Positions 3,247-35,619 of a stretch of DNA of 55,908 bases are shown here, one piece after another. Location: IMG/VR virus record IMGVR_UViG_3300027198_000001, positions 1 through 55,908 of that record; one strand, given 5' to 3'. Both the position numbers and the translations under genes were made by a program. The notes below the pieces were generated by a model. It saw nothing but the letters and a program-made list of their open reading frames with translations. It was not told the origin of the DNA and did no database searches. Positions within the stretch are counted from its first letter, which is position 1. Each line of letters starts with the position of its first letter. The DNA comes from a virus. Lineage: Duplodnaviria > Caudoviricetes.

Positions 3247-3675
3247 GTGTCTTTTGATTATGATAGAGATCTAGGCTTCTGGGAGTTACCTAAGCCTAAC
3301 AAGGGTAGAGAACGGGAGTGGCACGTTATAGCTAGAGTAAGTTCTAGGATTGTACCTTTCGGCTATGAGGTACATCCAGAGAATGAAAAGCTCCTAGTTC
3401 CTATCCCTGACCAGCTTGAAGCGTTAGAGCTTGCAAAGCGTCACTTAAAGCAGTACTCTTTTAGAGATGTATCTCGCTGGCTTTCTAAACAGACAGGCCG
3501 TTACATATCACATATGGGCCTAAAGAAGAGAGTTGAAATTGAGCGAAGACGTAAAAAAACTGCTGCAATTAAACGCAAGCTTGCCAAGCGCCTCGAAGAA
3601 ACGCTACACGAGATCAAAAAACTCGAAGAGCAAAACATCGGAGCCTACTCCATCACAGGAGGGGAAGACACCTAA
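3247..3675 (+). CDS. HTH DNA-binding protein (recombinase-domain-like)
   Basis: VPFGYEV...LVPIPDQ...SFRDVSRWL...ISHMGL; GTG start. Confidence 0.65.
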   Translation: MSFDYDRDLGFWELPKPNKGREREWHVIARVSSRIVPFGYEVHPENEKLLVPIPDQLEALELAKRHLKQYSFRDVSRWLSKQTGRYISHMGLKKRVEIERRRKKTAAIKRKLAKRLEETLHEIKKLEEQNIGAYSITGGEDT

Positions 3676-5128
3676 GCAGGTTGAAACCGTTTACGCTGAA
3701 GTTAAATCTGCAGAGTATAACATCGAAGATGCACAGGACGTTGTATTCAAGCCTAACGCAGGGCCACAGACAGCCTTTCTAAGCTCCTCTGAGCGTGAAG
3801 TACTCTACGGGGGTGCTGCGGGTGGCGGAAAGTCTTATGCGATGCTTGCAGACCCCTTACACGGCCTCAATGACCCTAACTTCTCTGGTCTGCTAGTACG
3901 ACATACTACGGAAGAACTACGAGAGCTTATCCAGAAGAGCCAAGAACTATATCCTAAAGCTATTCCTGGCATTAAGTGGTCAGAGCGTAAGTCACAATGG
4001 ACTTCACCTCGTGGTGGTAGACTCTGGATGTCTTACTTGGATAAAGACTTGGATGTTAACCGCTACCAAGGTCAGGCGTTTAACTGGATTGGCTTTGACG
4101 AACTTACTCAGTGGGGTACGCCTTACGCTTGGGACTATATGCGTTCACGACTACGTAGTGCCAGCAAGGAGTTAGGTTTGTACATGAGAGGTACTACTAA
4201 CCCTGGTGGCGCTGGGCATAGTTGGGTTAAGAAGATGTTTATTGACCCTGGTCCTGCTAATAAATCTTTCTGGGCTACAGACATTGAGTCTGGTGAGACT
4301 ATTAGGTTCCCTGTAGGTCACAGTAAAGAGGGTCAGCCACTATTTAAGCGCAGATTTATCCCTGCAATGCTATTTGATAACCCCTACCTAGCAGACTCTG
4401 GCGACTATGAAGCCATGCTTCTGTCTCTACCTGCACACCAGCGTAAGCAGCTTCTAGAGGGTAACTGGGATATTAACGAGGGTGCAGCGTTTCCTGAGTT
4501 TGACAGGAACAAGCATGTAGTAGAAGCTTTTGACATTCCAGAGTCTTGGCCTCGGTTTAGAGCCTGTGACTACGGATACGGTTCTTACACTGGTGTTCTG
4601 TGGTTTGCTGTATCACCTTCTGAGCAGCTTGTTGTGTATAGAGAGTTGTATTGTTCTAAAGTTACCGCTTCTGATCTAGCAGATATGATCTTAGACTTAG
4701 AAGCACATGACGGTAAGATGCTATATGGCGTACTCGACTCTTCTCTCTGGCATAACAGGGGTGATACTGGACCTAGCCTTGCAGAGCAGATGAACATGAA
4801 GGGCTGTAGATGGAGGCCTTCTGATAGATCTAGAGGTTCTCGTATCTCAGGTAAGAACGAAATACACAGACGTTTACAAGTAGATGAGTACACAGAAGCC
4901 CCACGTCTCGTATTCACTAGCAATTGTACGCATACTATAGCTCAAATCCCATCTATACCTCTAGATAAGCGTAATCCAGAGGATGTAGATACAAACTCAG
5001 AAGATCACCTCTATGATGCCTTGCGCTATGGTATTATGACTAGACCACGCAGCAAAAGCATATGGGATTACGATCCTGCAACACAACGCACTGGTTTTCA
5101 GGCTAGTGACACAACATTTGGATACTAA
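3533..5128 (+). CDS. terL: Terminase large subunit
   Basis: Walker A YGGAAGGGKS, Walker B IGFDEL, GTTNPGG, nuclease DYGY and DHLYDALRY motifs; start uncertain (TTG). Confidence 0.95.
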   Translation: MKLSEDVKKLLQLNASLPSASKKRYTRSKNSKSKTSEPTPSQEGKTPKQVETVYAEVKSAEYNIEDAQDVVFKPNAGPQTAFLSSSEREVLYGGAAGGGKSYAMLADPLHGLNDPNFSGLLVRHTTEELRELIQKSQELYPKAIPGIKWSERKSQWTSPRGGRLWMSYLDKDLDVNRYQGQAFNWIGFDELTQWGTPYAWDYMRSRLRSASKELGLYMRGTTNPGGAGHSWVKKMFIDPGPANKSFWATDIESGETIRFPVGHSKEGQPLFKRRFIPAMLFDNPYLADSGDYEAMLLSLPAHQRKQLLEGNWDINEGAAFPEFDRNKHVVEAFDIPESWPRFRACDYGYGSYTGVLWFAVSPSEQLVVYRELYCSKVTASDLADMILDLEAHDGKMLYGVLDSSLWHNRGDTGPSLAEQMNMKGCRWRPSDRSRGSRISGKNEIHRRLQVDEYTEAPRLVFTSNCTHTIAQIPSIPLDKRNPEDVDTNSEDHLYDALRYGIMTRPRSKSIWDYDPATQRTGFQASDTTFGY

Positions 5129-5130
5129 GT

Positions 5131-7233
5131 ATGGCAGAAAATGATGAAATGATGTTCGAGACGGACGATGTTGTTGCAGCAGAGGACGGTAAGGACACTC
5201 TATTTACAGCAAGTAGTGTAGTTTCATACGTTACTGACAGGTTCACTAGAGCAGAAGACGCTCGTCTAGGCGATGAAGAGCGTTGGCTTAGAGCTTATCG
5301 CAACTATCGTGGCTTGTATGGTCCAGATGTTAAGTTCACTGACACTGAGAAGTCTCGTGTGTTTGTAAAGGTAACTAAAACTAAGACACTTGCTGCTTAT
5401 GGTCAGATCATTGACGTACTGTTTGGTAACAACAGGTTCCCAATGAGTGTAGATCCTTCTATTCTACCTGATGGTGTCGTAGAATCTGCTCATATCAACA
5501 TTGATCCTAATGCGGAACAGGCTGGTGACGCCCTTAAAGCTGTTACCTCTGATCCAGCATCTAAGCCTTACTTGATTGGCCCAGATACTAAGCTTATGCC
5601 CGGCGAGACACTTACTTCATTGAAGGATCGTCTTGGCCCACTAAAAGAAAAGCTTGCACCTATTTCTGATAAGATCATTGAGGGTGTAGGTACTACAGCT
5701 ACTACTGTAACATTCCACCCAGCTATGGTTGCAGCTAAGAAGATGGAAAAGAAGATCCACGACCAGCTTCAAGAGTCTGGCGCTTCTGTTCACCTTCGCT
5801 CTATGGCGTTTGAGATGGCTTTGCTTGGCACTGGTGTTATGAAGGGTCCATTTGCTGTAGATAAGGAGTATCCTAACTGGGACGAAGAGGGCAACTATGA
5901 GCCTCTCATTAAGACTGTACCTGAGTGTAGTCATGTCTCTGTATGGAACTTCTACCCAGACCCAGAAGCATCATCAATGGCAGATGCAGAGTATACTGTA
6001 GAGCGTCACAAGATGTCTCGCACACAGCTACGTGCATTGAAGTCTCGCCCATACTTCATGAAAGAGGCTATCGGTACAGCTATTGATAGAGGTGCTGACT
6101 ACATCCAGAAGCACTGGGAACAGGCTATGGAAGATGCCTCTACTCAACCAGAGTCAGAGCGTTGGGAAGTCCTAGAGTTCTGGGGTTTTGTAGATGTTGA
6201 TATTCTTGAAGAGAATGGCATCAAGATCCCTAAAGAGTATAAAGATCTTGATGAGCTTAATGCTAACGTATGGGTGTGTAACGGCGAAGTGATCCGTCTT
6301 GTGCTTAACCCATTCAAACCTGCACGTATTCCTTACTACGCCGTACCATATGAGCATAACCCTTACAGCTTCTTCGGTGTAGGTATTGCTGAGAACATGG
6401 ACGATACTCAGACGTTGATGAACGGCTTTATGCGTATGGCTATTGATAACGCTGCAATGTCGGGTAACTTGATCATTGAAGTAGATGAGTCTAACCTAGT
6501 TCCAGGACAAGATATGTCTATCTACCCAGGAAAGATCTTCAGGCGTCAAGGTGGCGCTCCAGGACAGGCTATCTTTGGTACGAAGTTCCCTAACGTAGCA
6601 CAAGAGAACATGCAGCTTTTTGATAAGGCTCGTGTACTGGCTGATGAGTCTACAGGCTTCCCTAGCTTTGCACATGGTCAGACTGGTGTGTCTGGTGTAG
6701 GTCGTACTGCTTCTGGTATCTCTATGCTTATGTCTGCAGCTAACGGTTCTATCCGCACTGTAGTTAAGAACGTAGATGACTACCTTATCAAACCACTAGG
6801 TAAGTCTTTCTTTGCATTCAACATGCAGTTTGACTTTGATCCTAGCATTCGTGGTGACTTGGAAGTTAATGCTTCAGGTACAGAGAGCCTCATGGCTAAC
6901 GAAGTACGCTCCCAGCGCTTGATGCAGTTCTTGCAGGTAGCACAGAACCCTGTCTTGGCTCCTTTCGCTAAGATGGACTACATCATTCGTGAGATTGCTA
7001 AGTCTATGGATCTTGACCCAGCTAAGGTTACCAACTCTATTACTGATGCAGCTATTCAGGCAGAGATCCTGAAAGGGTTCCAATCTGCACAGCAACCTCC
7101 TGCAGGTGGCCCAGCGCCACAGGGACAGGGTCCACAAGGCGTTCAGGACTCTTCTGGTGGGGGTGGTTCACAAATAGGTGTAGGTAATGCTCCAGCACCA
7201 GGAGAAGATGGGTTCAGTGGCAATGTCGCTTAA
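5131..7233 (+). CDS. Portal protein
   Basis: 700 aa after TerL; FYPDP, FFGVGIAENM, RTASGISMLM motifs of podoviral portals. Confidence 0.9.
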   Translation: MAENDEMMFETDDVVAAEDGKDTLFTASSVVSYVTDRFTRAEDARLGDEERWLRAYRNYRGLYGPDVKFTDTEKSRVFVKVTKTKTLAAYGQIIDVLFGNNRFPMSVDPSILPDGVVESAHINIDPNAEQAGDALKAVTSDPASKPYLIGPDTKLMPGETLTSLKDRLGPLKEKLAPISDKIIEGVGTTATTVTFHPAMVAAKKMEKKIHDQLQESGASVHLRSMAFEMALLGTGVMKGPFAVDKEYPNWDEEGNYEPLIKTVPECSHVSVWNFYPDPEASSMADAEYTVERHKMSRTQLRALKSRPYFMKEAIGTAIDRGADYIQKHWEQAMEDASTQPESERWEVLEFWGFVDVDILEENGIKIPKEYKDLDELNANVWVCNGEVIRLVLNPFKPARIPYYAVPYEHNPYSFFGVGIAENMDDTQTLMNGFMRMAIDNAAMSGNLIIEVDESNLVPGQDMSIYPGKIFRRQGGAPGQAIFGTKFPNVAQENMQLFDKARVLADESTGFPSFAHGQTGVSGVGRTASGISMLMSAANGSIRTVVKNVDDYLIKPLGKSFFAFNMQFDFDPSIRGDLEVNASGTESLMANEVRSQRLMQFLQVAQNPVLAPFAKMDYIIREIAKSMDLDPAKVTNSITDAAIQAEILKGFQSAQQPPAGGPAPQGQGPQGVQDSSGGGGSQIGVGNAPAPGEDGFSGNVA

Positions 7234-7411
7234 AAAGCTAGTCAATGATAAAGCTATCTGGGATGCGCTTATTGAGGAGTTAGATGGGCGCATCTCTGGT
7301 ACACATAAAACCTTAGAGAGTTTGACGGATACTTCTGAGATATATAGATGTCAGGGTTACATCCAAGCTTTACGGAAACTAAAATACTTGAGGGATGTAG
7401 TCAATGGCTGA
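7223..7411 (+). CDS. Small conserved post-portal protein
   Basis: ATG at 7223; EIYRCQGYIQALRKL motif typical of the small gene after podoviral portals. Confidence 0.75.
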   Translation: MSLKKLVNDKAIWDALIEELDGRISGTHKTLESLTDTSEIYRCQGYIQALRKLKYLRDVVNG

Positions 7412-9767
7412 TGATACGGGTGTAAAAGACCAAATGACTGGACTATTAGGTAGTACTGAAGAGGAGTGGTCAAACTATACGAACAAACTTGCTTCTGAGT
7501 CTGAACCCCTACCAGAGACTACCTTTAGAGATGTAGCTACCTTCGTTGGTGAGATGACACCTATTATTGGTGATGCTATGGCAGCTAAAGATGTTTATGA
7601 TGAGCTTAACAAAGAAGAGCCTAATTATTACTTAGCAGGGGCTTTAGGTGGGGCTACTATTGTAGGCCTTGTCCCCGGCTTAGGTGATGCTGCTTCTGCC
7701 GCCATTAAGAAGGGTGCTAAAGAAGTATTTGATGTAGCTAAGCGGGTAGAGGTCAATCCTAATGCTATGGGTTCTATGGGTGGTAACATCTCCTTGAAAC
7801 CCAAAGAGGCAGACCTTCCAGATATAGAATTACCTCCCGCTGAAAATGCAGCTAGAACACAGATTGCAGGTACGTTACCTACATATAAAAAAGCAGACAC
7901 CCTTTTAAATGATGCAGTAGGGGAGGGTAGAACTCTAGACTTTGGGGCAGGATTGGGTTTATCTAAAAAAGAGCTAGGCTTTGATACATATGAGCCATTC
8001 CCAAAAGCAGACTTTACACCTGATTTTATTTCTCCAGAAGATATTCCATCTAACTCATACAAAAAGGTTACAAACCTAAATGTTCTAAACGTAGTACCTC
8101 GTGAGGTTAGGGATGGTATCGTTATGGATATTGGCCGTATTCTTGAACCTAATGGTGTAGCTGTAATAACTACTCGTGGTAGAGATGTAATGGCTGCTAA
8201 AGGTACTCCTGGACCTGAGCCTATGTCTATCATTACATCTATGGATACATATCAAAAAGGTTTTACTCAGCCTGAACTTAGATCCTATATAACAGAGGTT
8301 TTAGGTAATGGTTTTGAAGTAGCAAACAACAAGCTTGGTGCTGCTGGTGTTACAATACGTAAGCTACCTACAGAAACTAATGATACAGGATTCGCTGAAG
8401 GTGGCCTTGTTAAAAAGAGACAGCAATATGCAGAAGGTGGATTAACAATGGATGATCAAATGGAAACAGTGTTTAAATCCTCTAGAGCAGAAGTAGATCC
8501 TGTGTCTGGTAATGAAGTACCTCTAGGTGCTAGGCCTGAAGAGGTTCGTGATGATATCCCAGCTAACCTCAGTGAAGGTGAGTATGTTGTACCTGCTGAC
8601 GTTCTACGTTACTATGGTGTTAAGTTCTTTGAAGATCTCCGTATGCAAGCTAAGCAAGGCTGGCAAGAGCTAGACGAAGGTGGTCGTGTAGGTGGTGAAC
8701 CTTCAGGTATGGAAATGGGTGAAGACGAACTTCCATTTGATATCAGTGAGTTGCAGACTATTGATGATTCACAGATGGGTGAACAGCCTGAGATGAACAT
8801 GGGTGGTTACATTAAGGGTTATGCTGATGGCGGTGTAGTAGACGTTGATATGACTGCACTACAGGAAGAGTTTCCAGATGCATTTACGACTGCTGGAAAA
8901 GGTTCTGGGCAAGAGTATCGCACTTACACCAATGCTGAAGGTATGACACTCTCTGTACGCTTTGTGAATGGTAAGCCTATGTCATCTATCCCTGCAGGTT
9001 ATACAGCTTCTGGTGAGACTGCTGCTGAAACTGCTGCACCAAAGCGTGAACGCAAAGATCGTGACACTCCTACCCAACAACAGCCTGTAGAACGTAAGGA
9101 CTGGGCTACTGCTGATGCTTCTGAGTTCGGCACTTACCTTGATCAGAAAGATAGCCTATTAGGCAGAGGCGTTAGAGCTATTGCTGGCGGTATTAACCCT
9201 CTTATGGGCGCTCTTATTAGTTATGCAGGTAACGCAGAAGACAAAAGAGTTATGGAAGCTCTAGATAACCGCCTTGCAGCTATTACAGACCCTAAAGATC
9301 CAGAGTATAAAAAGCTTATGGACATGAAGTCTAGATTTACTGCTGCTAATGAAAAAGATACAATTAAAGATAAAGTAGTACGTGGTACTGGTATCTATGG
9401 TGGCGGTAAGAGCATGACTGATGGTCTAGTTGATACCAGCGGTGATGGTAAGACGAACTTTGGTGATACATATCTTGGTGACTTGCTCGGCTTCGACGGC
9501 TCTATGGGCGTAGACGCTAAAGATAAAGATGGTAACAAGATTGGTATTACTGAGTCTGTTGGCGGTGGCAGAAGAGATATGACTAATAAAGACACATCTC
9601 CAGCGCCTACACCCCCTGCGTCATCACCTGAAGCTGCTACTGCAACAAGCGGGTCTGCCCCAAAAGTCACAACTACTTCAATTCCAGAGAGCTACGACGA
9701 TAAAATTAGCAGAGGTGGCGGCTTCATGCATGGCGGCTATGTCAGCAAGAAGTCTAAAAAGAAGTAA
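7404..9767 (+). CDS. Multidomain head-module protein: pre-toxin TG-like + SAM-dependent methyltransferase + conserved SEGEYV core
   Basis: TPIIGDAMAAKD...GLVPGLGD; LDFGAGLG...NVLNVV...TYQKGFTQPEL; DDIPANLSEGEYVVPADV; five [FYM]xxGG motifs. Confidence 0.8.
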   Translation: MADDTGVKDQMTGLLGSTEEEWSNYTNKLASESEPLPETTFRDVATFVGEMTPIIGDAMAAKDVYDELNKEEPNYYLAGALGGATIVGLVPGLGDAASAAIKKGAKEVFDVAKRVEVNPNAMGSMGGNISLKPKEADLPDIELPPAENAARTQIAGTLPTYKKADTLLNDAVGEGRTLDFGAGLGLSKKELGFDTYEPFPKADFTPDFISPEDIPSNSYKKVTNLNVLNVVPREVRDGIVMDIGRILEPNGVAVITTRGRDVMAAKGTPGPEPMSIITSMDTYQKGFTQPELRSYITEVLGNGFEVANNKLGAAGVTIRKLPTETNDTGFAEGGLVKKRQQYAEGGLTMDDQMETVFKSSRAEVDPVSGNEVPLGARPEEVRDDIPANLSEGEYVVPADVLRYYGVKFFEDLRMQAKQGWQELDEGGRVGGEPSGMEMGEDELPFDISELQTIDDSQMGEQPEMNMGGYIKGYADGGVVDVDMTALQEEFPDAFTTAGKGSGQEYRTYTNAEGMTLSVRFVNGKPMSSIPAGYTASGETAAETAAPKRERKDRDTPTQQQPVERKDWATADASEFGTYLDQKDSLLGRGVRAIAGGINPLMGALISYAGNAEDKRVMEALDNRLAAITDPKDPEYKKLMDMKSRFTAANEKDTIKDKVVRGTGIYGGGKSMTDGLVDTSGDGKTNFGDTYLGDLLGFDGSMGVDAKDKDGNKIGITESVGGGRRDMTNKDTSPAPTPPASSPEAATATSGSAPKVTTTSIPESYDDKISRGGGFMHGGYVSKKSKKK

Positions 9768-9836: not shown

Positions 9837-10757
9837 ATGTCAGAAGCACAAATGAAGACTGATTCAGTTTCACATCGCCGCAACCAAGCTCGTGTAGATC
9901 GTGACGAGGCTGAACTACAAGCACTTCTAAAAGAGAGTGGCTTAGTAACTGAGGAAGAGACAGATGATAGCGTACAGCAAGAAGCCCCAGAAGAAACTGA
10001 GGAAGAAGCCGTTGTTAGCCAAGAAGCCATCCCCTCAGAAGAGCCAGAGCAAGAAGAAGCCTCAGAAGAAGGTCTAAGTGCAGAAGAGAAAAGCTTTAAG
10101 AAGCGTTACTCTGACATTCGTAAGTACATGCAAGAGAAAGACACAGAGTATAAGCGTGAGATTGAAGCACTCAAGACACGCCTAAGCAACTCTTCACAAA
10201 CCTCTCTTGAAGAAGTTACCACTAAGGAAGAGATTGAGGCTTGGGCTAAGCAGAACCCTAAAGCTAACGCCCTCATTCGTGCCTTGGCTGAAGAACAGAC
10301 TACTGAGAAGATGAAAGGCTTGGAAGGTCGTGTCAAAGAAGTAGAGGCTATGCGTACTCAGGCTCGTAAAGAGAAAGCTGAAGCTACGTTACTCTCTATG
10401 CACCCAGACTTCGATAACATTCGTAATGATGATGCATTCCATGACTGGGCTAAGGAACAGCCTAGCTGGGCGCAGACAGCACTCTATGATGAGCCTGACG
10501 ATGTTAAGTCTGTAGCTCGTGTGTTGGATCTCTACAAGGCTGACAAGGGTATCAAGACTAAGAAGCCTAGCGCAGACAAAGAGGCAGCATCTTCTGTTAA
10601 GTCTCGTCGTAGTGTAATTGATACAAATGACTCCTCTAACTACCTCTCTGAATCAGCAGTAGAGAAGATGAGTATTAAAGAATATGAGAGCCGCATGGAG
10701 GAAATCTTCAAAGCGCAGCAATCAGGAAAGTTTATTTACGATATGAGTAAAAGATAG
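9837..10757 (+). CDS. Capsid scaffolding protein
   Basis: Acidic coiled-coil protein (FKKRYSD, HPDF...F.DW) immediately before the MCP. Confidence 0.8.
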   Translation: MSEAQMKTDSVSHRRNQARVDRDEAELQALLKESGLVTEEETDDSVQQEAPEETEEEAVVSQEAIPSEEPEQEEASEEGLSAEEKSFKKRYSDIRKYMQEKDTEYKREIEALKTRLSNSSQTSLEEVTTKEEIEAWAKQNPKANALIRALAEEQTTEKMKGLEGRVKEVEAMRTQARKEKAEATLLSMHPDFDNIRNDDAFHDWAKEQPSWAQTALYDEPDDVKSVARVLDLYKADKGIKTKKPSADKEAASSVKSRRSVIDTNDSSNYLSESAVEKMSIKEYESRMEEIFKAQQSGKFIYDMSKR

Positions 10758-10992: not shown

Positions 10993-12051
10993 ATGGCTAT
11001 TACATCTGCATCTGGCGGCTTCAACGGAGCCTGGTCCCCAGTAATCTACTCGAAAACAGCACAGATTGCACTTCGCAAGTCCGCTGTTACTAACGCAATC
11101 ACCAACAACTCTTACTTTGGTGAAATCTCCAACCAAGGCGACACTGTTCGCATCCAAAAAGAGCCAGACGTAACAGTCACAGCTCTGCAGCGTCACACAT
11201 CCATCACTGCTGAGCAGTTGGATGACACAGACTTCTCCCTGACAATCGACAAAGCTAACTACTTCGCATTCAAAATGGATGACATCGAAGAGCAGTTCTC
11301 GCACGTTGATTTCACACGTATGGCTTCCGACAAAGCAGCTTATAAAATGGCTGACGCAATGGACGAAGAAGTATTGGGTTACTTGTCTGGTTACGCTGGT
11401 GGTGCTGGTGCTTGGGCTGCAAACACTGTAGCTTCTGGCGACAAAGCTAATGCTGCTGCTGGTGCAGACGAGCTTCTTGCTGCTAACAAGCTTGATGCAA
11501 CTGCTTTTGGTAACTTGACCATCTCCACTACAGCTACTGCTGGCGATGCTATCCCATTGGCTCCACGTCTTCCAGGCGCAACTGCGTTGTCTTCTTCGAC
11601 TGTTTCCCCATTGACTGTACTTGCTCGTATGGCTCGTAAGATGGACACACAGAACGTAGACGCTCGTGGTCGTTGGGTTGTACTTGATCCAGTGTTCGTA
11701 GAGATGCTGAAAGACGAAGATTCCCGTATGCTTAACGGCGACTTCGGTGGTGCTGGTCTCCAGAACGGTTTGATCCTCAACAACATCCACGGCTTCCGTG
11801 TATATGTATCCAACAACTTGCCATACCTCGGCACAGGTGCTGGTACTAACGGTACTGCTGCACAGTCCACAGACTATGGTGTTATTGTTGCTGGTCAGGA
11901 CGATGCTGTTGCTTCTGCTGAGCAGATCAACAAAGTTGAGTCTTACCGTGATCCAAACAGCTTTGCTGACATTGTACGTGGTATGCACCTCTATGGTCGC
12001 AAGATCCTGCGTCCAGAGTCGCTCATTGTAGCTAACTACAACGCTGCTTAA
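10993..12051 (+). CDS. Major capsid protein
   Basis: GEISNQGDTVRI, LTIDKANYFAF, ADIVRGMHLYGRK; strongly biased codon usage; RBS AAGGA. Confidence 0.92.
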   Translation: MAITSASGGFNGAWSPVIYSKTAQIALRKSAVTNAITNNSYFGEISNQGDTVRIQKEPDVTVTALQRHTSITAEQLDDTDFSLTIDKANYFAFKMDDIEEQFSHVDFTRMASDKAAYKMADAMDEEVLGYLSGYAGGAGAWAANTVASGDKANAAAGADELLAANKLDATAFGNLTISTTATAGDAIPLAPRLPGATALSSSTVSPLTVLARMARKMDTQNVDARGRWVVLDPVFVEMLKDEDSRMLNGDFGGAGLQNGLILNNIHGFRVYVSNNLPYLGTGAGTNGTAAQSTDYGVIVAGQDDAVASAEQINKVESYRDPNSFADIVRGMHLYGRKILRPESLIVANYNAA

Positions 12052-12571: not shown

Positions 12572-13741
12572 ATGGCTTTAATACTCAAGGATAGAGTAAA
12601 AGAAACTGCAACTGTTGAAGGTACAGGATCTGTAACTCTTGCTGGGGCAGTAGAGGGTTTTCAATCCTTTGCCTCAGTCTTGGGTAGTTCTGACACTACG
12701 TACTACGCCATCTCTCACCGTAATGCTGATGAGTGGGAAGTAGGTCTAGGTACTTATAGTGCTGGCACATTGGATCGTACTACAATCCTAGAAAGTTCTA
12801 ACTCTGGTGCTTCTGTTAGCTTTACTGCTGGTACTAAGGATGTATTCATTACACTGCCAGCAGAGAAGGCTGTTGTACTTGATGCTAACTATGACCTAAG
12901 CGTAGGCAATATTATCACTACTGGTTACCTTCGTGGCCCAGCAGTCTTTACTATTGACCCTGCTGCTCATGGTGATGATACAGGTACTCTTGTCATTGCT
13001 GGTAACCTTCAGGTGGATGGCGTTACTACTACTATTAACTCTACTACTCTCAACGTGGATGATCTAAACCTTACCTTAGCATCTGGTGCAGCTACACCTG
13101 CTGCAGCTAATGGTGCAGGTATCACTGTAGATGGTGCTGCGGCTACTATTACGTATGACTCAGCATCTGACAGATGGGTTATGAACAAGGCCTTGTCTGC
13201 AGATGTAGTAGGTAATGTTACAGGCCAAGTGTCTAGCATTAGCAACCATAGCACTACAGATGTTGTAGAGGGTACAAACCTTTACTATACAGCTACACGG
13301 TTTGACGATGCTCTAGCTACTAAGACTACTGCTGATCTTACTGAGGGTGTTAACCTCTATTATACTGCAGGACGTTTCGACACTGCCTTTAGTGCTAAGA
13401 ACACTACAGACCTCACTGAGGGTACAAACCTCTACTACACTACTGGACGTTTTGATAGTGCTTTAGCTACTAAGAGTACAACAGATCTCACTGAGGGTAC
13501 AAACCTCTACTACACTACATCTCGTGCTAATGCAGATTTTGATACACGTATTGCAACAAAAAGCACAACAGACCTAGCAGAGGGTACTAATCTGTATTAT
13601 ACTACATCAAGAGTTGATGCACATGTAAACAAAGCTTTTGTAGACTCACTTAATGTAGATGCAGATACGCTTGACGGCTTAAACTCTACAGACTTTGACC
13701 CTGCTGGAAGCGCTCTAGCTTTAGCTATTGCACTCGGATAA
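12572..13741 (+). CDS. Tail fibre-like protein with TxDLxEGTNLYYT repeats
   Basis: Five ~25-aa repeats; N-terminal DRVKET module; C-terminal ALALAIALG. Confidence 0.8.
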   Translation: MALILKDRVKETATVEGTGSVTLAGAVEGFQSFASVLGSSDTTYYAISHRNADEWEVGLGTYSAGTLDRTTILESSNSGASVSFTAGTKDVFITLPAEKAVVLDANYDLSVGNIITTGYLRGPAVFTIDPAAHGDDTGTLVIAGNLQVDGVTTTINSTTLNVDDLNLTLASGAATPAAANGAGITVDGAAATITYDSASDRWVMNKALSADVVGNVTGQVSSISNHSTTDVVEGTNLYYTATRFDDALATKTTADLTEGVNLYYTAGRFDTAFSAKNTTDLTEGTNLYYTTGRFDSALATKSTTDLTEGTNLYYTTSRANADFDTRIATKSTTDLAEGTNLYYTTSRVDAHVNKAFVDSLNVDADTLDGLNSTDFDPAGSALALAIALG

Positions 13742-14594: not shown

Positions 14595-14908
14595 TTGGTG
14601 CAATAAATACAATAGCGGCACTACAGTCCCTCCGCCCAGCATCACAATGGGTGCTGCGTGATGACATCCTTGAGTGGCATGACACTGAGCAGACCCAGCC
14701 AACCACAGAAGAACTGGCGGCAGAGGTTCTACGCTTACAAGCAGCCTATGACGCCAACCAGTATCAGCGTGACAGAGCCGCAGCTTACCCAAGTCTGACT
14801 GAGCAAGCTGACATGGCTTACTGGGACAGACAGAACGGCACCACGACACTTGATGACGCCATCAACGCTGTCAAAGTCGCATACCCTAAACCCACAGGAG
14901 AAGCATAA
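14591..14908 (+). CDS. Tail fibre assembly chaperone-like protein
   Basis: ALQSLRP...YQRDRAAAYPSLTEQ...VKVAYPKP. Confidence 0.7.
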   Translation: MIGAINTIAALQSLRPASQWVLRDDILEWHDTEQTQPTTEELAAEVLRLQAAYDANQYQRDRAAAYPSLTEQADMAYWDRQNGTTTLDDAINAVKVAYPKPTGEA

Positions 14909-16221
14909 TGGCTGGCTATATTGGCTCAAGGGCTTCCGTTGTCTCCTCTGGCGCTGAACGCAAGAAGACCTTCGCAATCACCACGACAACAACAGTCCTC
15001 ACTGGATTGTCCTACACGCCCACATTCGTGCATCTGTTTCACAACGGTGTTCGTCTCGTAGACGGCACAGACTACACAGCGACTAATGGCACAAGCATCA
15101 CGCTGACTTCTGCTGCTGAGAGTGGCGACGAGGTTGTCGTGATCTCGTATGCTTCGTTTCAAGTTGCTGATGCCTATACGAAGGCTGAGACTTACTCGAA
15201 GGCTGAAGCTGACGCTGAGATTGCTTTTAAATCGTTTACTGAGGGTGCCAACACAGGATATGGCACTGCTCATAGAGTAAACAACCCAGCTTACTATGGG
15301 GATATAGGTTCTGACGCCCTTGATTTGAGTTATAATGCTTTTGCTTCTACAACCCGTGGCGCTACTGGTGCCAAATCCACAGCAATTGGTGGTGGTGTAA
15401 CGGCATCTGGCGATAACTCCACAGCAATTGGCTCTAATTCAGAAGCATCTGGCCTTCGCTCAACAGCAATTGCATATCGTGCATTAGCATCTGGTGATAA
15501 CTCCGTAGCGGCGGGTTATATAGCAACAGCTTCTGGCATCGGTTCCTTCGCACAGGCTAGTAGGGGGAATGCTAGTGGTAGCTACTCAGCAAACTTTGGG
15601 AATAGAACATATGCAAGTGGGTATACTGCGTTTGCCTCTGGAAATGGAACAACAGCAGCGGGTGATAACTCATTTGTAGTAGGTTATAATGGCGGCACAG
15701 GCACAGCCTCTGGAACCGTGTTTGGCGTGGCGTATGGTAATAGCACTGGGGACATCACGGCTTCTACGACAGACACGAACTTAGTGCTTGCTGTGTCTAA
15801 TGCTGGTCATGTCACTATGCCGTATCAGCCTTTCTTTAAGGCCAGATCACAGCCTAACGTAAATATTACGACACAGGGGCAGATATTACCGTTTGACGTT
15901 GTGGATAAAAACATAGGCAATCATTACAATAACAGCACATTTACGTTCACCGCCCCTGTTAATGGGGCCTACGTTTTTAACGTAATGCTGTTTACCCCTC
16001 CCAACCTAATATCTTTCGATTACTTCTACGTTAACGGGGTCCGTCAGACTTCTATTGAGCAGAACCATGCTCCAACAGGATACACTAACCGCAGTGATGT
16101 GTTTGTGGTCTACCTAGTTGCAGGGGACGCCGTGAGTATAGTTCATTGGGTAGGCACAACGCACCTCAACGGGTCTTTTGCTGGGCCACACAGCTACTTC
16201 AGCGGCTACCTTCTCGGATAA
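14908..16221 (+). CDS. Fibre protein with YadA-like head repeats and C-terminal C1q-like domain
   Basis: ASGDNSTAIG repeats; FDVVDKNIGNHYNNSTFTFTAPVNGAYVF...FSGYLLG. Confidence 0.8.
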   Translation: MAGYIGSRASVVSSGAERKKTFAITTTTTVLTGLSYTPTFVHLFHNGVRLVDGTDYTATNGTSITLTSAAESGDEVVVISYASFQVADAYTKAETYSKAEADAEIAFKSFTEGANTGYGTAHRVNNPAYYGDIGSDALDLSYNAFASTTRGATGAKSTAIGGGVTASGDNSTAIGSNSEASGLRSTAIAYRALASGDNSVAAGYIATASGIGSFAQASRGNASGSYSANFGNRTYASGYTAFASGNGTTAAGDNSFVVGYNGGTGTASGTVFGVAYGNSTGDITASTTDTNLVLAVSNAGHVTMPYQPFFKARSQPNVNITTQGQILPFDVVDKNIGNHYNNSTFTFTAPVNGAYVFNVMLFTPPNLISFDYFYVNGVRQTSIEQNHAPTGYTNRSDVFVVYLVAGDAVSIVHWVGTTHLNGSFAGPHSYFSGYLLG

Positions 16222-25942: not shown

Positions 25943-27985
25943 ATGGCTAAACGATTTGGTGGCTTTACACCTGAACAGATGGGAAAGATTGTCCCAGAAA
26001 TGCAAGGTATGCAAGCTGATGAGCAAGCTAAGTTCTTAGCCTCTCAGCCTGGTGCTGCTGCTCGTGTAGGCAAGATGAGTGAATTGGCTGAGAAGCGAAT
26101 TAATATGGCTTATGGTGGTTATGTAAAGGGCTATGCTGCTGGCGGCATGGCTACTGATCTAGATACAGCACAACAGTCTTATGCAGACTCCCAGAAAGCA
26201 CTACAAGATGCAAGAGCTGCTCAAGCTGCTAACCCTGAAGACACAACACTACAAGATGCTATTACTTCTGCAGAGGCTGCTGCTAACCTAGCTAAAGAGG
26301 GTATGTCATCTGCTGAAGCTATATTTAAAGCTACTGAAGTACCAACCAGTGCAGAGCTAGTCTCTGGTGCTATCAATGATCCTACATCTATGACAACTAA
26401 AACAGATGTAGAGCTAAACAAAGTAACAGATGAACAACTTATTGACCCCGCTACTGGTCAGCTTAAAGATCCTGCACCTACGGTGAGTGGTACTACAGCA
26501 GAGACTGCTGCTGCTGTTCAAGCACCTACAGACGTTACTGCGGAAGCTGTAAGTACTACACTCTCTACACCTGCTGTATCTAAAGCACTAGACAGCTTAG
26601 AAGCTGCCAAAGGTACTGTATCTGAAGATGCTACTGTAGATGCAGCTAATATGTCTCCACAACAGCTTGCACAGCTAGGCCTAGATGCTGCTCAGATTGA
26701 TAAAGCCCAGACAGTAGATGCACCTGATGCTCGTACACTACAGACTGGTGAAATGGTTTCAGGCTCTGCTGTTGATATGGAGCGGGTCAAGAAAGAGATT
26801 AACTTTGAAGCTGCTACAGGAGCGCCGTCAACAGACGCTACAGTGCAAGGTCAACTTACTGGACTGATGGAGCAGTTTGAAGGTAAAAACCCTCCAGCAT
26901 GGGCTGCAGGTGCTATGAGAGCCGCTGGTGCAGCTATGGCTGCTCGTGGCTTGTCTGCCTCATCTATGGCTGGTCAGGCTGTCGTACAGGCAGCTATGGA
27001 AAGCGCTCTGCCTATCGCTATGCAAGATTCACAGACATCTGCTGCGTTTGAGAAGCAGAACCTTAGCAACAAGCAACAGGCTGCTATGTTTGCTGCAGAG
27101 AAACGTGCTGAGTTCATGGGTATGGAGTTCACCCAAGAGTTCCAAACTCGTGTAGCTAACGCTTCTAAGATCTCTGACATTGCCAATATGAACTTCACTG
27201 CTGAACAGCAGGTAGCCTTAGAGAATGCTCGTATGGCTCAGTCTGTAGACTTGGCTAACCTTGGTGCTAAGAATGCTAAGGTATTGGCAGATGCTGCAGC
27301 TATGTCTCAGATGGACTTGGCTAACCTCTCTAATGAGCAGCAAGCTAGAGTTACGAATGCTAAAGCTTTCCTAGACATGGATATGTCTAACCTAGCTAAT
27401 CAGCAGCAGACTTCTATCTTTAAGACTAAAGCTATGACGGATAGTATCCTGAGTGACTCTTCTGCTGATAATGCTACTAAGCAGTTTAATGCTTCTAGTA
27501 AGATGCAGACAGAGCAGTTCATGGCTAACCTCACCTCTACTGTTAGTATGTTTAACAATGAGCAAACTAATGCAATGAGTAAGTTTAATGCAGGTGAAGC
27601 AAACGCTATTGAGAAGTTCAACAGTGAGCTTATCAACCAGCGTGAACAGTTTAACACAAACAACTCTCTTGTAATTGAGCAAGCTAACGCTGCTTGGTAT
27701 CAATCCGTATCTACTCAAAACACAGCAGCAATCAATGATGCTAACAGAGCAGATGCACAAGCAGCTAACAACATGACTAACCTAGCCTTTAATGCTGCTA
27801 TGCAAGAGACTAGAGATATGATGCAGTATGCTTGGACTTCTGAAGAGAATGATGCTAACAGGGCTGTACAACTAGCCATCGCTAAGCTTAGCTCAGAAGA
27901 TGCTAAAACGGCTGCAGCAGCAAGTAAAACAGAAGGTATGTGGGGAGCTTTTGGTAGCTTCGCTGCGGCTGTATGGAGAGGATAA
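25943..27985 (+). CDS. Internal virion (ejection) protein
   Basis: A/Q/N-rich helical repeats; MAYGG and YAAGG motifs; C-terminal amphipathic segment. Confidence 0.7.
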   Translation: MAKRFGGFTPEQMGKIVPEMQGMQADEQAKFLASQPGAAARVGKMSELAEKRINMAYGGYVKGYAAGGMATDLDTAQQSYADSQKALQDARAAQAANPEDTTLQDAITSAEAAANLAKEGMSSAEAIFKATEVPTSAELVSGAINDPTSMTTKTDVELNKVTDEQLIDPATGQLKDPAPTVSGTTAETAAAVQAPTDVTAEAVSTTLSTPAVSKALDSLEAAKGTVSEDATVDAANMSPQQLAQLGLDAAQIDKAQTVDAPDARTLQTGEMVSGSAVDMERVKKEINFEAATGAPSTDATVQGQLTGLMEQFEGKNPPAWAAGAMRAAGAAMAARGLSASSMAGQAVVQAAMESALPIAMQDSQTSAAFEKQNLSNKQQAAMFAAEKRAEFMGMEFTQEFQTRVANASKISDIANMNFTAEQQVALENARMAQSVDLANLGAKNAKVLADAAAMSQMDLANLSNEQQARVTNAKAFLDMDMSNLANQQQTSIFKTKAMTDSILSDSSADNATKQFNASSKMQTEQFMANLTSTVSMFNNEQTNAMSKFNAGEANAIEKFNSELINQREQFNTNNSLVIEQANAAWYQSVSTQNTAAINDANRADAQAANNMTNLAFNAAMQETRDMMQYAWTSEENDANRAVQLAIAKLSSEDAKTAAAASKTEGMWGAFGSFAAAVWRG

Positions 27986-27989
27986 GCTA

Positions 27990-29108
27990 ATGGATTTCAA
28001 TAAATATAAGTACTCTCTAGATATCTTTGACTTGCTTGGTAGTGATGTAGAAGGTGTAACACCTCTTAGCCGTGGTCTGTTCACCCCTAAGAAGGGTGCA
28101 GAAGAGCCTGAAGTAAAGAGAGACCCAGCTAGAGAAATGGCACAGCTTACAGTTGCTACTTTTGGTGGTCAAGACAATGCTAGAAAGTACTTTGGTACAA
28201 GCCTCCCTGCTACGTCTAATGACTATAGTGACCTAGACCCTTGGAGAGAAGCTGCCCTTAGATCTGCAGAAGAGACTGAGCTTCTAAAGCAGGATAGAGG
28301 TATCACACGGTCCCTAGGTCTAGAAGATGTTGAGAGACGCAACCTTACAGGCGACCCTTTTGAGGGTAATCAACTTGTTAAGTATAAAGCCCCTCCTCTG
28401 CCTAGTATGCGCCCTGTCGTTGACTTTGAGAGATCTCTTAGCTCTGAGGATATTCCTTATAAAGAAGGTGAAGAAGTTGCAACTACAATTACAGATCCAA
28501 CTACAGGGAGAGGTTTGATGTCTCCACAAGGTGGTGGTGTATCTGAAACACCTACAGAAAGTAAGGGTATCCTAGACTTCATTGGTTCTGGTGAAGGTAC
28601 ATACACTTCAAGCAATAGAGGTACTATTGGAAAAGATATTATAGGCGCAAATAGAAACACTACTAGAAATGGTAAGTCTTTGACTGAGATGACTATTGGT
28701 GAAATCCAAGCCCTACAGACTATTGATGATCCTAATGATCCTAACAGGCTATTTGCAGTGGGTAAGTATCAAGTTATTCCAAGCACAATGGATATTGTTG
28801 TGAAGGGTTTAGACCTCTCTTCTGATCAGATTTTTGATACAGCGACACAAGATAGAATTGCTAAGTTCTTAATCAGTGAGAAGAGACCTAAACTAGGGGA
28901 CTTCTTGTCTGGTGGCGAAACATCCCTAGACCGTGCAATGCTTGAAATGGCTAAAGAGTTTGCATCTATCCCTGTGCCGTATGACGTTAAAAAAGGTAGC
29001 AGGACTATTAAAGCGGGTCAGAGCTATTACGCTGAAGAAGGTGGTAACTTAGCTAATCACACTATAGAAGAGACTAGAAACATGCTGTTAGCTGCTAGAA
29101 GCTCATAA
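27990..29108 (+). CDS. Internal virion protein with C-terminal lysozyme-like domain
   Basis: LDFIGSGEG...LTEMTIGEI...AVGKYQVIPST...FD..TQD...EFASIP; ATG at 27990. Confidence 0.8.
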   Translation: MDFNKYKYSLDIFDLLGSDVEGVTPLSRGLFTPKKGAEEPEVKRDPAREMAQLTVATFGGQDNARKYFGTSLPATSNDYSDLDPWREAALRSAEETELLKQDRGITRSLGLEDVERRNLTGDPFEGNQLVKYKAPPLPSMRPVVDFERSLSSEDIPYKEGEEVATTITDPTTGRGLMSPQGGGVSETPTESKGILDFIGSGEGTYTSSNRGTIGKDIIGANRNTTRNGKSLTEMTIGEIQALQTIDDPNDPNRLFAVGKYQVIPSTMDIVVKGLDLSSDQIFDTATQDRIAKFLISEKRPKLGDFLSGGETSLDRAMLEMAKEFASIPVPYDVKKGSRTIKAGQSYYAEEGGNLANHTIEETRNMLLAARSS

Positions 29109-29174: not shown

Positions 29175-29738
29175 ATGGTAGATGTATTCTCTCGCCCCAT
29201 CCCAGGTCAATCCCTCACAGCTACACCAAAGAACGCACCTTGGGAGAGGCCTCCTGAGCTTGTAGAGACAGGTGATGCAGTCAAGTATTACATCAACAAG
29301 CTTGCAGATGAAGATGTCATGGATGATCTTGCTGTTACCTTTGAGATGGGTGCTGACCTCAAGACTGTAGTGGAAACACTTATGACTATGGGTTCTATGA
29401 AAGGCTTACACACTGTAGAGGTTGGCATGTTGGCTGGACCTATTGTGGCATCCTTTGTTAAGGCTGCTATGTCTACGTATGGTATTGAAGTTAAAGAGAC
29501 AGCTACAGACCCTAAAGAAGATCGTAAAGATAGAAACATTGCCCGCATGAAACTCTTGATGCAGGAATACCTTAAAACAGACCCTAAGAAAGATGCTGGA
29601 TCAGAATTGATTGAAGAGCTATCCACAGTAGACGCTACAGACGTATCACAAGATGATACAGAACCACAACAAGAGCAAGAGCCTATGATGGAAGCAGAAG
29701 CTGCTCCTACAGGTCTTATGGCTAAGGGAGAAGTATAA
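29175..29738 (+). CDS. Putative internal virion protein
   Basis: RPIPGQSLT..P.N.PWERPP N-terminus; coupled to the next gene. Confidence 0.7.
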   Translation: MVDVFSRPIPGQSLTATPKNAPWERPPELVETGDAVKYYINKLADEDVMDDLAVTFEMGADLKTVVETLMTMGSMKGLHTVEVGMLAGPIVASFVKAAMSTYGIEVKETATDPKEDRKDRNIARMKLLMQEYLKTDPKKDAGSELIEELSTVDATDVSQDDTEPQQEQEPMMEAEAAPTGLMAKGEV

Positions 29739-35000: not shown

Positions 35001-35619
35001 ACAGGCTGAAGGTGGTGCTGTCATTGCTCAGAGTGCAACCAAGTACGTAGACAACATCATTGAACTTCTGATTGGTGAGACAGAGACTATCACAGGTGAT
35101 ACACTACGTGTAGCTACTCGTGAGGGTGATCTGAGAGATCCTAACCCTTTCTTGTCTATGCTGGGTATTAAGATCCAAGAAGGTCGTACCCCTGGTGAAG
35201 AGCTTTACGATATGATGGACATGCCACGCTATACAGCTAACAAGCGTACACAGATTGCTGCATATGATCGTGCCTACAACGAGTATATTGCACCAACGGT
35301 TAATCGTTATGCACAAGAGATGTTATCTAATCCTGACTTCCAAGCTCTACCAGAGGATAAGCAGAGAGTAGTAATGACTGCTAGACTAAAGGAAGCTGCT
35401 ACACAGATGAAGACATACCTTGAGAATGCTCCTACGGAATCTCACATTCAAACTATCAGGCTTAAAGCTTTGGCTGTACCTAAAGCACCAAAACAAGCTG
35501 CACTGAAGTTTCTGCGAGAAGAGGAGGGCTTTGACGGTACAATCAAAGATATGTCATACTTAGAACTAGCAGCCTACATGCAATACGTAGAATACTACAA
35601 AGCCCAGACAGACTGGTAA
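32092..35619 (+). CDS. Large internal virion protein
   Basis: 1175 aa, last gene of the + arm; N-terminal DFFNKLM.GT duplication. Confidence 0.75.
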   Translation: MAEDQDFFNKLMGGTRVVEPTEVKPVEDTKPVEEDDFFNKLMSGTKVASEQPTRTAQATTRPYEGVVNNRTDKLKKDDLLRTENIGVIRSYMGQKYGTDGVKGTDEEVMESFVDTMRWFNTNTASTIGEARRIKNADETKRATAGEAFELYDRLGNVFVNDGVMGAVDGVKDYIFAAVADPTNYLGLLTGGWAKAGAVGVGAAGKELVKGLARQAGEEALKKGLNKTAQQAAVDAAVSGATSQLVKRGIRGPARKALIKEAAKREADLFEYTIKRRAESDFMKDRITSATKGSIINTIALDGAVAAMNDVQIQNTMMDVGVQEEYSLLQTGFSSLLGGVGGTFQLAGMNLPIKSNVSDIAADIDIGKMKGEMTRTINLALDKTETKQATDAVLKAAKSWKEKVARGKAVYDDVPTAVDLIKDIMFGADEKSGLVAIYRDKGVQLPQDMRVTDLMTNLVKYMAPKELDSINKEIKSLGISLGDTTQVATNLRDLIAVEVSKGGQLLNVMSQVRRTIDGGVYRGEQILQQQTEEAMEALPDKADYGRYMQGLWRRMLVSSPATSAVNVLGFTQFYGGTAIAEVLTGSQFLVAGLIKGGSKTAAGKESLRKAAVYKDMVTQKLRYLADPHSTKEAYMKILEDYDNVRKTLYESLTGGVDVNAERYGIDPSNPIFKSLESLAEGSSIIAGVRAQDTWSKSVMFMSEMDKQMRLKHDMPLDAVLRGGKMELIDDDILGKTLDATQKSVFSKDYTTGQNSLVEGVATTVESISRAPLLGTLLPFGRFFNNVLASTYQWTAGGMLGYAGAIKRQVVNGKPIEVSDVEALSRSAVGLTFMYLAMDYDKERQKDNLSIFDVKVGDTIVNAQNTFPMSLFLSAGRLLNDKREGKPVNNEVWMSTLEQLAVGQLASDVEFKNDIRALGEAIFSEDGDKGAAMLDGLAMKSGNFVAGFTRPLDAANKMVGLMVNNDAAKDVRQAEGGAVIAQSATKYVDNIIELLIGETETITGDTLRVATREGDLRDPNPFLSMLGIKIQEGRTPGEELYDMMDMPRYTANKRTQIAAYDRAYNEYIAPTVNRYAQEMLSNPDFQALPEDKQRVVMTARLKEAATQMKTYLENAPTESHIQTIRLKALAVPKAPKQAALKFLREEEGFDGTIKDMSYLELAAYMQYVEYYKAQTDW

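Follow-up and report, generated by a model that had tools for sequence, protein, structure and literature searches.

Why should a phage fuse a methyltransferase to a protein encoded directly behind its portal gene? The question is raised by a 787-residue (aa) open reading frame (ORF) at positions 7404-9767 of the IMG/VR virus record IMGVR_UViG_3300027198_000001, a complete viral contig of 55,908 bp that was analyzed as a whole and is called the window here. Our analysis documents the modularity of this protein, the fold of its enzyme domain, its synteny with the portal gene, the exchange of its cassettes and the domain repertoire of its relatives. In our interpretation the contig belongs to an HMO-2011-type podophage, and the gene encodes a 'polyvalent' protein of the virion interior that is built from modules and whose swappable cargo would be packaged in the head and ejected into the host. 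We give this interpretation a probability of roughly 65%, with packaging, ejection and enzyme substrate as the parts that we infer.

When pieces of the protein are compared by BLAST with the orthologues, five separable parts emerge (module A, a methyltransferase-like module, a core and two tail segments); together with an AlphaFold2 (AF2) model this bears out the modular split that an earlier reading of the sequence alone had proposed. All strings quoted in that sequence-only reading occur in the translation where it had put them: TPIIGDAMAAKD (residues 52-63), GLVPGLGDAA (88-97), LDFGAGLG (178-185), YEPF (196-199), NVLNVV (226-231), TYQKGFTQPEL (282-292), FAEGG (330-334), YAEGG (342-346), KDQMTGLL (8-15) and DDQMETVF (350-357). 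These features go beyond chance, because the motifs are invariant in the family or isolate alignments and the DQM-type motif is enriched over background. The layout is as follows.

7404-9767, + strand: modular post-portal gene of 787 aa without internal stop, with cargo cassette, conserved core and tail
7404-7448, + strand: N-terminal peptide (residues 1-15), MADDTGVKDQMTGLL, resembling cargo-less N-termini and the junction peptide 349-357
7521-7742, + strand: module A (residues ~40-113), helical, with the Gly-rich hydrophobic segment YLAGALGGATIVGLVPGLG
7827-8366, + strand: class I S-adenosylmethionine (SAM)-dependent methyltransferase (MTase) domain (residues 142-321), the exchangeable cargo
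8367-8447, + strand: junction linker, with FAEGG at 8391-8405, YAEGG at 8427-8441 and the Shine-Dalgarno (SD)-like AAGGTGG at 8434-8440
8448-8702, + strand: conserved core (residues 349-433) from Met349, with VDPVSGNEVP..EEVRDDIPA.LSEGEYVVPADV, then a long helix
8793-8837, + strand: second [FYM]xxGG pair (MNMGGY, YADGGV; residues 464-478), after the core
8910-9383, + strand: tail region with a small beta unit (503-535) and a helical bundle (572-660), AF2 predicted local distance difference test (pLDDT) 85-95
9384-9764, + strand: Gly/Ser/Thr/Lys-rich C-terminal tail (residues 661-787), predicted mostly disordered

The C-terminal tail has short predicted helices at residues 690-694 and 715-718 and ends in FMHGGY (774-779) followed by KKSKKK. 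The overall pLDDT of the whole-protein AF2 model is 68, and the entire 787-aa protein finds only chance-level matches among PDB sequences (E >=0.46). The tail region is shared by many, not all, relatives, the first tail segment by 52/78 and the second by 20/78.

The enzyme domain is a methyltransferase fold with a predicted intact SAM site. An AF2 model built on a 30-member alignment reaches a pLDDT of 92.8 and a predicted template modelling score (pTM) of 0.86. Foldseek finds at least 500 matches to it in the PDB at E<=0.001, and all the top ones listed are SAM MTases, the best being METTL6 (8owx, E 3.3e-8; template modelling (TM) score up to 0.59); other listed neighbors are structural-genomics MTases and small-molecule and peptide N-MTases. 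The family profile also matches phosphatidylethanolamine N-methyltransferase 8ys9 by sequence (E 5e-4). LDFGAGLG, E-P-F, NLNVLNV, PGG..ITTRG and YQKGF are invariant across the 30 family members, including motif I D179-x-G-x-G (D179, G181, G183) and E197 of E197-P-F. The domain thus combines the Rossmann-like fold with the glycine loop and the strand-2 acidic residue of class I SAM MTases, and the Rossmann SAM-MTase recognized from the letters alone is confirmed. Because the gathering cut-offs of Methyltransf_11/23/25 are not reached (Methyltransf_23 scores 14.7 bits, E 0.026, versus a cut-off of 27), it forms a distinct family without a Pfam model of its own. A resemblance to the phosphorothioation-associated putative methyltransferases had also been suggested. 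TIGR04096 does give a match (E 0.0047), but at 15.7 bits versus a cut-off of 150 and over only 27 residues around TYQKGFTQPEL, and this relationship was rejected as too weak.

What might this enzyme methylate? The whole 787-aa protein is devoid of cysteine, and DNA C5-cytosine methyltransferases carry their catalytic cysteine in a PC motif. A regular-expression search of the whole protein for [SDN]PP[FYW], the catalytic motif of DNA amino-MTases (PMC10853773), found none; PP occurs only in ELPPAE (144) and PTPPAS (737), and the segment after strand 4 of the domain reads NLNVLNVVP. By motif the domain therefore sits with neither the DNA amino-methyltransferases (N6A/N4C) nor the C5-cytosine methyltransferases. 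It is a bare Rossmann core of ~180 residues, and a canonical DNA base MTase is unlikely, because there is no Cys, no [SDN]PP[FYW] and no room for a target-recognition domain. Judged from its motifs, action on DNA appears unlikely; motifs and structural neighbors together make a host protein, an RNA or a small molecule the more likely substrate rather than a DNA base.

The MTase family is large. An exhaustive phmmer search with the domain finds 837 cluster representatives at E<=0.001, 231 of them at E<=1e-30, and the domain occupies nearly any position in proteins of 210-4770 aa. A pattern-limited scan of 185,579 species genomes yielded 33 loci, mostly on contigs of metagenome-assembled genomes (MAGs); reading frames of >=1000 aa occur at 24/33 of these loci and 23/33 frames are cut by the locus ends. 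In BFVD, too, the nearest structures come from within large phage proteins, and in one case a cytidylyltransferase-like domain is fused to the match. Two family members (P0056, P0082) share a Cys-containing C-terminal block (R.SFCARM.GMKK...NKSLR.WNC), a further conserved module. The same MTase module, at 46% identity, is found in gp97 of Mycobacterium phage Myrna (L015 3810-7445), whose 'tape measure' annotation looks doubtful because of this module and because the gene lies just before the major head protein gene.

Is the enzyme a fixed part of the protein? A tblastn search of sequenced phages puts the contig with the HMO-2011-type podophages, namely the Roseobacter phages CRP-1, 2, 3, 9, 13, 207, 212, 235, 345, 603 and 738, plus HMO-2011. 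The search gave 25 matching records, and 0/25 cover >=80% of the query. Phages of this type rank among the most abundant marine phages (PMC9038755). From the sequence it had been predicted that phages would differ in the domain before the SEGEYV core but share the core itself, and this is what the relatives show. CRP-3 and CRP-2 have an N-terminal Hydrolase_2 cell-wall hydrolase (5.9e-16 and 1.3e-11), in CRP-3 together with the MTase and DUF7178. DUF7178 (PF23802) recurs in the cargo regions of CRP-738, CRP-3 and CRP-212, with 5.4e-24 in CRP-738 gp40 (L003 3617-6124). Pfam matches in 40 extended metagenomic forms are Phage_L5_gp82 (3), Hydrolase_2 (2), LPD23 (2) and one each of Phage_lysozyme, NLPC_P60, CHAP and Methyltransf_23. 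PF25735 is carried by 32 of 120 listed module-A proteins, and the rest have no precomputed Pfam domain.

Clustering of the segment between module A and core in 142/143 proteins (one without the core was left out) gave about 24 architecture types. Greedy clustering with reciprocal coverage >=60% was used; single-linkage had chained unrelated cargos into a cluster of 88. The largest types have 40, 38 and 24 members. Eight proteins, including that of the window, form the MTase-only type; in L021, L069 and P0005 additional sequence accompanies the MTase. Among the remaining types, representatives match Phage_L5_gp82 (3.3e-8) and, both below curated cut-offs, ART-PolyVal (1.2e-4) and ParB_N (7e-4). 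By hhalign, the MTase profile shows no relationship to the three largest types that lack the MTase (probability <2%). In CRP-345 (L006 7219-7920) and CRP-13 (L008 5749-6441) a free-standing class I SAM MTase gene directly follows the post-portal gene; it matches Methyltransf_25 (~5e-9 to 5e-10) and belongs to a different MTase family.

These architectures do not follow the portal. When 20 architecture labels are mapped onto a tree of the portals of 53 phages, they require 32 changes (minimum possible 19); shuffled labels need 33.2 on average, with 36/200 shuffles as low as 32; architecture is thus essentially uncorrelated with portal phylogeny. Near-identical portals accompany different forms in the pairs L042/L037, L018/L030, L064/L056 and L073/L083. 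The exchange itself can be read from the DNA of L073 and L082. The two are 97-100% identical through the portal gene, a small ORF, module A and ~70 further codons, fall to 24-46% over ~600 bp and, shortly ahead of the YAEGG junction, are back at 97-99%. In L073 this divergent block coincides exactly with the MTase domain; the right-hand cassette boundary lies at the junction linker. L082 has in place of that MTase a Rossmann domain that has diverged strongly, carrying VDIGGG, YDPF and HNVLNVI, which hhalign relates to the MTase family profile with a probability of 67.7% (E 4.9e-5, 120 columns). This is a clean cassette swap. Separately, the tails of these loci show two short hypervariable patches (~7071-7126 and 7653-7800 in L073) within otherwise 92-100% identical genes.

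What, in contrast to the cargo, is constant? The sequence-only reading had described a fusion to a conserved head-module protein, and this holds: the core is the sole universal part of the family, present in 14/14 isolate proteins with 15 invariant positions and in at least 591 viral-contig relatives found by an IMG/VR scan with the core alignment. Its characteristic peptide 'SEGEYVVPADV' lies within about residues 360-430. A portal gene with 65-83% identity to that of the window lies directly upstream of the core-bearing gene in 53/80 fetched loci, the 53 being those with a complete upstream portal ORF. Orthologue lengths among the isolates run from 377 to 1395 aa. The core is N-terminal in CRP-603, CRP-345, HMO-2011 and CRP-1, central in CRP-207, CRP-2, CRP-13 and CRP-9, C-terminal in CRP-3, CRP-212 and CRP-235, and a separate gene in CRP-738. 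Among the best 80 of the at least 591 loci, the core-bearing ORF was extracted in 78 and is complete in 62; these 62 measure 399-2156 aa, with the core starting anywhere from residue ~40 to ~1668. The 5' end is complete in 70 ORFs, which comprise 29 short (cargo-less) and 41 extended forms. In the AF2 model the conserved peptide (365-397) is coil and residues 398-425 form a helix (pLDDT 85-87). The core matches no Pfam, PDB or ESM Atlas family; its profile finds only ribosomal bL31 in the PDB (E about 1), and ESM Atlas returns only unnamed viral clusters for residues 349-787 (scores <=0.88). As an aside, CRP-3 (L001), CRP-212 (L009), CRP-235 (L010) and CRP-738 gp39 (L003 6134-7282) have a Cys-rich knuckle (e.g. 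HGGMPCGCGGDCDGSCG) directly before the core, which in this C-terminal-core clade may be a metal-binding element replacing the GG-Met junction.

Taken together, these data suggest the following scenario. The C-terminal ~440 residues (core plus tail, from Met349) would be the ancestral protein: core and tail lie beside the portal gene wherever this morphogenesis module occurs, and about 40% of relatives have nothing more. The ~60-residue core peptide and its helix may anchor the protein inside the procapsid. The N-terminal 348 residues would be an accessory cargo cassette made of the N-terminal peptide, module A and the MTase with its intact SAM-binding motifs. Recombination swaps the cargo between two conserved flanks, of which the left one is module A plus linker and the right one the [FY]x[EQK]GG-Met junction, and closely related phages carry different enzymes because of this exchange. 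The protein would become part of the head during assembly and enter the host along with the DNA, and the MTase would act there early.

Does the protein really belong to the virion, and if so, as what? Beyond HMO-2011-type phages, hhalign with the core profile finds a match (probability 96.3%, E 1.5e-9) in Rhizobium phage RHph_TM3_14A, in the C-terminal part of a protein of 362 aa, with DD[IV]PA.L..GE[YF]V.P.DVV..[YW]G.K kept, and this protein belongs to phrog_8003, 'virion structural protein' (5.5e-83). The order at the Rhizobium phage locus is phrog_511 'internal virion protein', a 61-aa ORF, an acyl-CoA N-acyltransferase, the 362-aa protein and proteins of 963 aa and >2300 aa. Such a layout, with the core motif after an IVP-A-like acyltransferase and before two large proteins, matches the internal-virion-protein (IVP) operons described by Hardies et al. 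(PMC4819975), whose Table 2 has no IVP-D for HMO-2011. The protein might therefore be a structural component of the ejection channel, an analogue of T7 gp14/P22 gp7 (IVP-B), with core and tail as part of a trans-envelope conduit, module A inserted in the membrane and the enzymes as passengers. This alternative overlaps with the carrier interpretation and differs only in taking the core as channel instead of anchor. The hydrophobic Gly-rich helix of module A would suit it, but the maximum Kyte-Doolittle (KD19) hydropathy of that module, at YLAGALGGATIVGLVPGLG, is 1.45 and stays under the usual transmembrane threshold. Moreover, the window gene is post-portal and not downstream of tail tube genes, and another set of genes in the window better fits the IVP-B/C/D size pattern:

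29175-35619, + strand: candidate internal protein trio of 187, 784 and 1175 aa, consecutive ORFs whose size and order recall T7 gp14/15/16

The trio has no Pfam or PHROG match. We regard a channel function of the core as rather unlikely, if still worth serious thought.

The gene's place between the portal gene and a scaffold-like gene also fits a protein needed for assembly only, in which core and tail serve as a scaffold- or chaperone-like factor that is neither kept in the virion nor ejected from it, and the MTase acts late in the infected cell, e.g. on a head protein or on phage DNA that is still to be packaged. Much of core and tail is indeed predicted to be extended, helical or disordered, as in scaffolding proteins, and the separate class I MTase gene just downstream in CRP-345 and CRP-13 suggests that methylation close to head assembly could be important in its own right. 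Against this stand the four kinds of peptidoglycan hydrolase on the same core, which suit exit from the virion at entry and not a scaffold, and which we consider the best indirect argument that the protein would leave the virion at that stage. The occurrence of the core motif in a 'virion structural protein' PHROG points the same way, and ART-PolyVal, ParB and LPD23 belong to proteins for which delivery is predicted (PMC5512222). An assembly-only role seems improbable to us, and we keep to the packaged and ejected carrier.

Module A raises a question of its own, as the sequence-only reading had likened it to the pre-toxin domain PT-TG. It is present in 23/78 viral-contig relatives. In 21 of them it falls within the first ~130 residues; in L030 and L044 it starts near residue 200. 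In a large protein collection module A heads 344 proteins of 432-1378 aa (E<=1e-3). AF2 predicts it to be helical (pLDDT 59-77), and its profile finds only eS25 in the PDB (E 0.21). If module A were a true PT-TG domain, the gene would encode a polymorphic toxin in the bacterial sense. The module does stand N-terminal to variable enzymatic domains, and an ESM Atlas feature search with residues 1-135 places a PT-TG cluster (100% PF14449 members) at rank 13 with a score of 0.87, below the 0.9 level and no more than a lead. The PT-TG model PF14449 itself (gathering score 23.5 bits) has no match at E<=1 in the protein or in residues 1-142, none at E<=10 in the six-frame genome and none (0/23) at E<=1 in the module-A relatives. 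DUF4112 recurs instead, with weak matches in 16/23 of these relatives (best E 1.5e-4, below cut-off). Module A was accordingly not filed under PT-TG, because PF14449 finds nothing, DUF4112 recurs and the language-model score is only 0.87; the homology proposed earlier is not supported. In addition, no immunity gene follows the ORF, and the cargo of the window protein is an MTase, not a toxin, although variable domains do follow module A in the relatives. We consider a true PT-TG polymorphic toxin very improbable here. The likeness to PT-TG holds as a functional analogy, that of a conserved module preceding variable enzymatic domains, and a short P-[IV]-[IV]-G-[DT]-like motif in module A presumably adds to the resemblance.

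How is the cassette joined to the core? Both elements noticed earlier at this point are present: an in-frame ATG at 8448-8450 (Met349) and, 7 nt before it, the SD-like AAGGTGG at 8434-8440. In alignments Met349 falls on the start codon of the short, cargo-less forms. These open with M(A)..[DE]Q[MT]E..F, and in the extended forms the same peptide is internal, after [FY]x[EQK]GG..M. The DQM motif noted at the start of both modules is likewise a real pattern: an N-terminal [DENKS]xQ[TM] occurs within the first 25 residues in 21/29 short and 18/41 extended forms, versus 100/2318 (4.3%) background windows. Among 45 extended forms the junction reads GG-x(1-5)-M-x(1-3)-Q in 34 (by regular expression), has a Met at another spacing in 7 (by eye) and lacks one in 4. 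An SD-like string lies 6-9 nt before the junction ATG in the 38 rows compared (AAGGAGG 11, AGGTG 15, AAGG-type 12), 4 of which (L030, L035, L071, L093) are regular-expression matches at a wrong site.

The SD-like AAGGTGG is partly forced by the peptide, because the same string encodes E-G-G of YAEGG. The GGA codon is commoner at the junction Gly (13/36) than at other GG dipeptides of the same genes (39/345; Fisher p 2.8e-4), which is suggestive only, because the 13 are largely from one clade and [EQK]GG recurs without a following Met. [FYM]xxGG is also found after the short-form start, after the core and at the C-terminus, and as no Met follows in these places the junction string is at least partly a peptide motif. 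Met349 nevertheless has the makings of a nested pair, with an in-frame internal ATG and SD aligned to the start of the free-standing homologue. Going by these signals, internal initiation at Met349 is possible and the nested start possibly functional.

A bolder view would treat the junction as part of a plug-and-play 'cargo socket', in which it is a working, translated ribosome-binding site yielding two products, the flanks serve for exchange and the MTase is an injected effector. The phage would then make a short essential core protein from Met349 and a sub-stoichiometric full-length form by which the enzyme is dragged into the head. Junction and module A would double as recombination flanks for cassette exchange, and the MTase, whose family of at least 837 clusters is almost confined to giant phage proteins, would represent a new class of injected effector with a host non-DNA target. 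We offer this combination tentatively and consider it unlikely as a whole.

The genes around the post-portal ORF agree with its position in the head module.

3533-5128: terminase large subunit gene, upstream of the portal gene
5131-7233, + strand: portal gene, 700 aa (Pfam SU10_portal 1.3e-25; phrog_332/1216), upstream of the 787-aa ORF
7187-7411, + strand: small ORF, 74 aa from the first ATG, with further in-frame ATGs at 7208 and 7223
9837-10757, + strand: acidic helical 306-aa protein (phrog_13678 6.6e-51), scaffold-like by position only
10993-12051, + strand: major capsid protein gene (phrog_267 'major head protein' 3.9e-55)

Portal and terminase genes adjoin the 787-aa ORF. Of the earlier placement between portal and scaffold genes, the portal half is secured by SU10_portal and the scaffold half holds by position only; the 306-aa protein has no Pfam family above cut-off. 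The small ORF at 7187-7411 overlaps the portal stop and 8 nt of the start of the 787-aa gene (ATGGCTGA); it matches no Pfam or PHROG family, and small ORFs of 54-72 aa occupy the corresponding position in CRP phages and HMO-2011. Between the 787-aa ORF and the scaffold-like gene the ORF list contains no small gene, in line with the earlier remark that no obvious immunity gene follows.

Three further genes of the window were noted in passing. At 12572-13741 (+ strand) a 389-aa protein with ~6 tandem copies of a ~20-residue unit (...TTDLTEGTNLYYT..RFD...) is probably a fibre or decoration protein. At 14908-16221 (+ strand) a 437-aa protein combines a C-terminal C1q domain (1.4e-13) with YadA head repeats (2e-12), a pairing that is adhesin-like and unusual in a phage fibre. 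A 402-aa protein at 27900-29108 (+ strand), whose C-terminal half matches the endolysin PHROG phrog_90 (6.3e-25), could be a virion-associated or lysis muralytic enzyme.

Several points weigh against the carrier interpretation. At least 29 of the 40 extended forms have no Pfam match in their cargo, and the sub-threshold scores of ART-PolyVal and ParB_N weaken the case for these two domains. The portal tree is a quick maximum-likelihood (ML) tree, not the result of a careful search, and contigs from metagenomes can be chimeric. The counts given above come from the best 80 core loci and from 120 of the 344 module-A proteins. The PHROG label 'virion structural protein' comes from annotation and not from a test, and a literature search turned up neither proteomics nor structures of HMO-2011-type virions. 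Finally, the post-portal protein is not needed to explain ejection, because the T7-like trio is available at 29175-35619.

What would the carrier interpretation mean? The post-portal gene, so far a 'hypothetical protein', turns out to be a hypervariable enzyme carrier and a likely arms-race locus. Its compact conserved core motif could serve to load foreign proteins into virions, and the large unnamed methyltransferase family becomes a candidate early-infection effector.

The nearest known counterparts are the polyvalent proteins of Iyer, Burroughs, Anand, de Souza and Aravind (2017, PMC5512222), multidomain proteins of phages and conjugative elements that lie beside portal or terminase genes in phages and are predicted to be packaged and delivered. 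Their repertoire includes lysozyme, peptidases, ADP-ribosyltransferases (ART), ParB, methylases and LPDs (PMC5512222). Like these, the window gene adjoins portal and terminase genes and joins unrelated modules (A, MTase, core, tail) in one polypeptide; lysozyme, NlpC/P60, ART-PolyVal, ParB, LPD23 and methylases all occur in its relatives, and of these the window protein itself has the methylase. Unlike those proteins, it is anchored not by MuF, portal or MPTase domains but by a ~60-residue core motif without a Pfam family, and the pre-cargo module A is new. The methylase of that paper, DarB-type N6A with a superfamily 2 (SF2) helicase, also differs from the small stand-alone Rossmann domain without [SDN]PP[FYW] found here, and the available text makes no mention of the window family.

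With the MuF polymorphic toxins (Jamet et al. 2017, PMC5576092) the protein shares the post-portal position in the head module, a variable enzymatic domain and membership of a polymorphic family. In MuF toxins the variable domain is C-terminal and an immunity gene is present, whereas here the variable domain is N-terminal and no immunity gene follows. Pfam Phage_Mu_F has no match at E<=1 in the 787-aa protein. We also take it that the phage group of the window does not consist mainly of temperate prophages of Firmicutes, unlike the MuF toxin phages.

Internal virion proteins of podoviruses variably host tail lysozymes and passenger domains for the cytoplasm (Hardies et al. 2016, PMC4819975); the examples include the N4 gp50 virion RNA polymerase (vRNAP), a SAM-methylase site in gp60 of Pseudomonas phage H66 and the muralytic domains of T7 gp16/phiKMV. 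The family described here resembles them in its variable lysozyme and cytoplasm-type domains, among them a SAM-dependent methylase, and differs in its post-portal location, as theirs is downstream of tail tube B (PMC4819975). No sequence similarity of the window protein to IVP-D was detected.

In phage lambda, the post-portal gene C/Nu3 has an in-frame internal start from which the C-terminal part is made alone. The window gene shares such an in-frame start, with the difference that the N-terminal part is a protease in lambda and a swappable cargo here. For T4 Alt, packaging is directed by a cleaved N-terminal capsid-targeting peptide. P1 DarB and T4 Alt are capsid-packaged enzymes that are injected with the DNA (PMC5512222), and the proposed role of the window protein, a head-carried modifying enzyme acting at entry, would be of the same kind; DarB is, however, a DNA N6A MTase with a helicase, and the window enzyme is fused to a structural core.

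In the passages searched of the HMO-2011-type genome papers, the post-portal gene is not discussed, and the word 'methyltransferase' appears 0 times in PMC9038755 and PMC8528129 and in the reference list only in PMC6918029. A literature search found no paper joining 'HMO-2011' and 'polyvalent'. Because polyvalent and packaged effectors are already known, our results extend the packaged-effector idea and do not overturn it. New are its abundant setting, the core anchor motif, module A, an MTase family without a Pfam model and the cassette swap.

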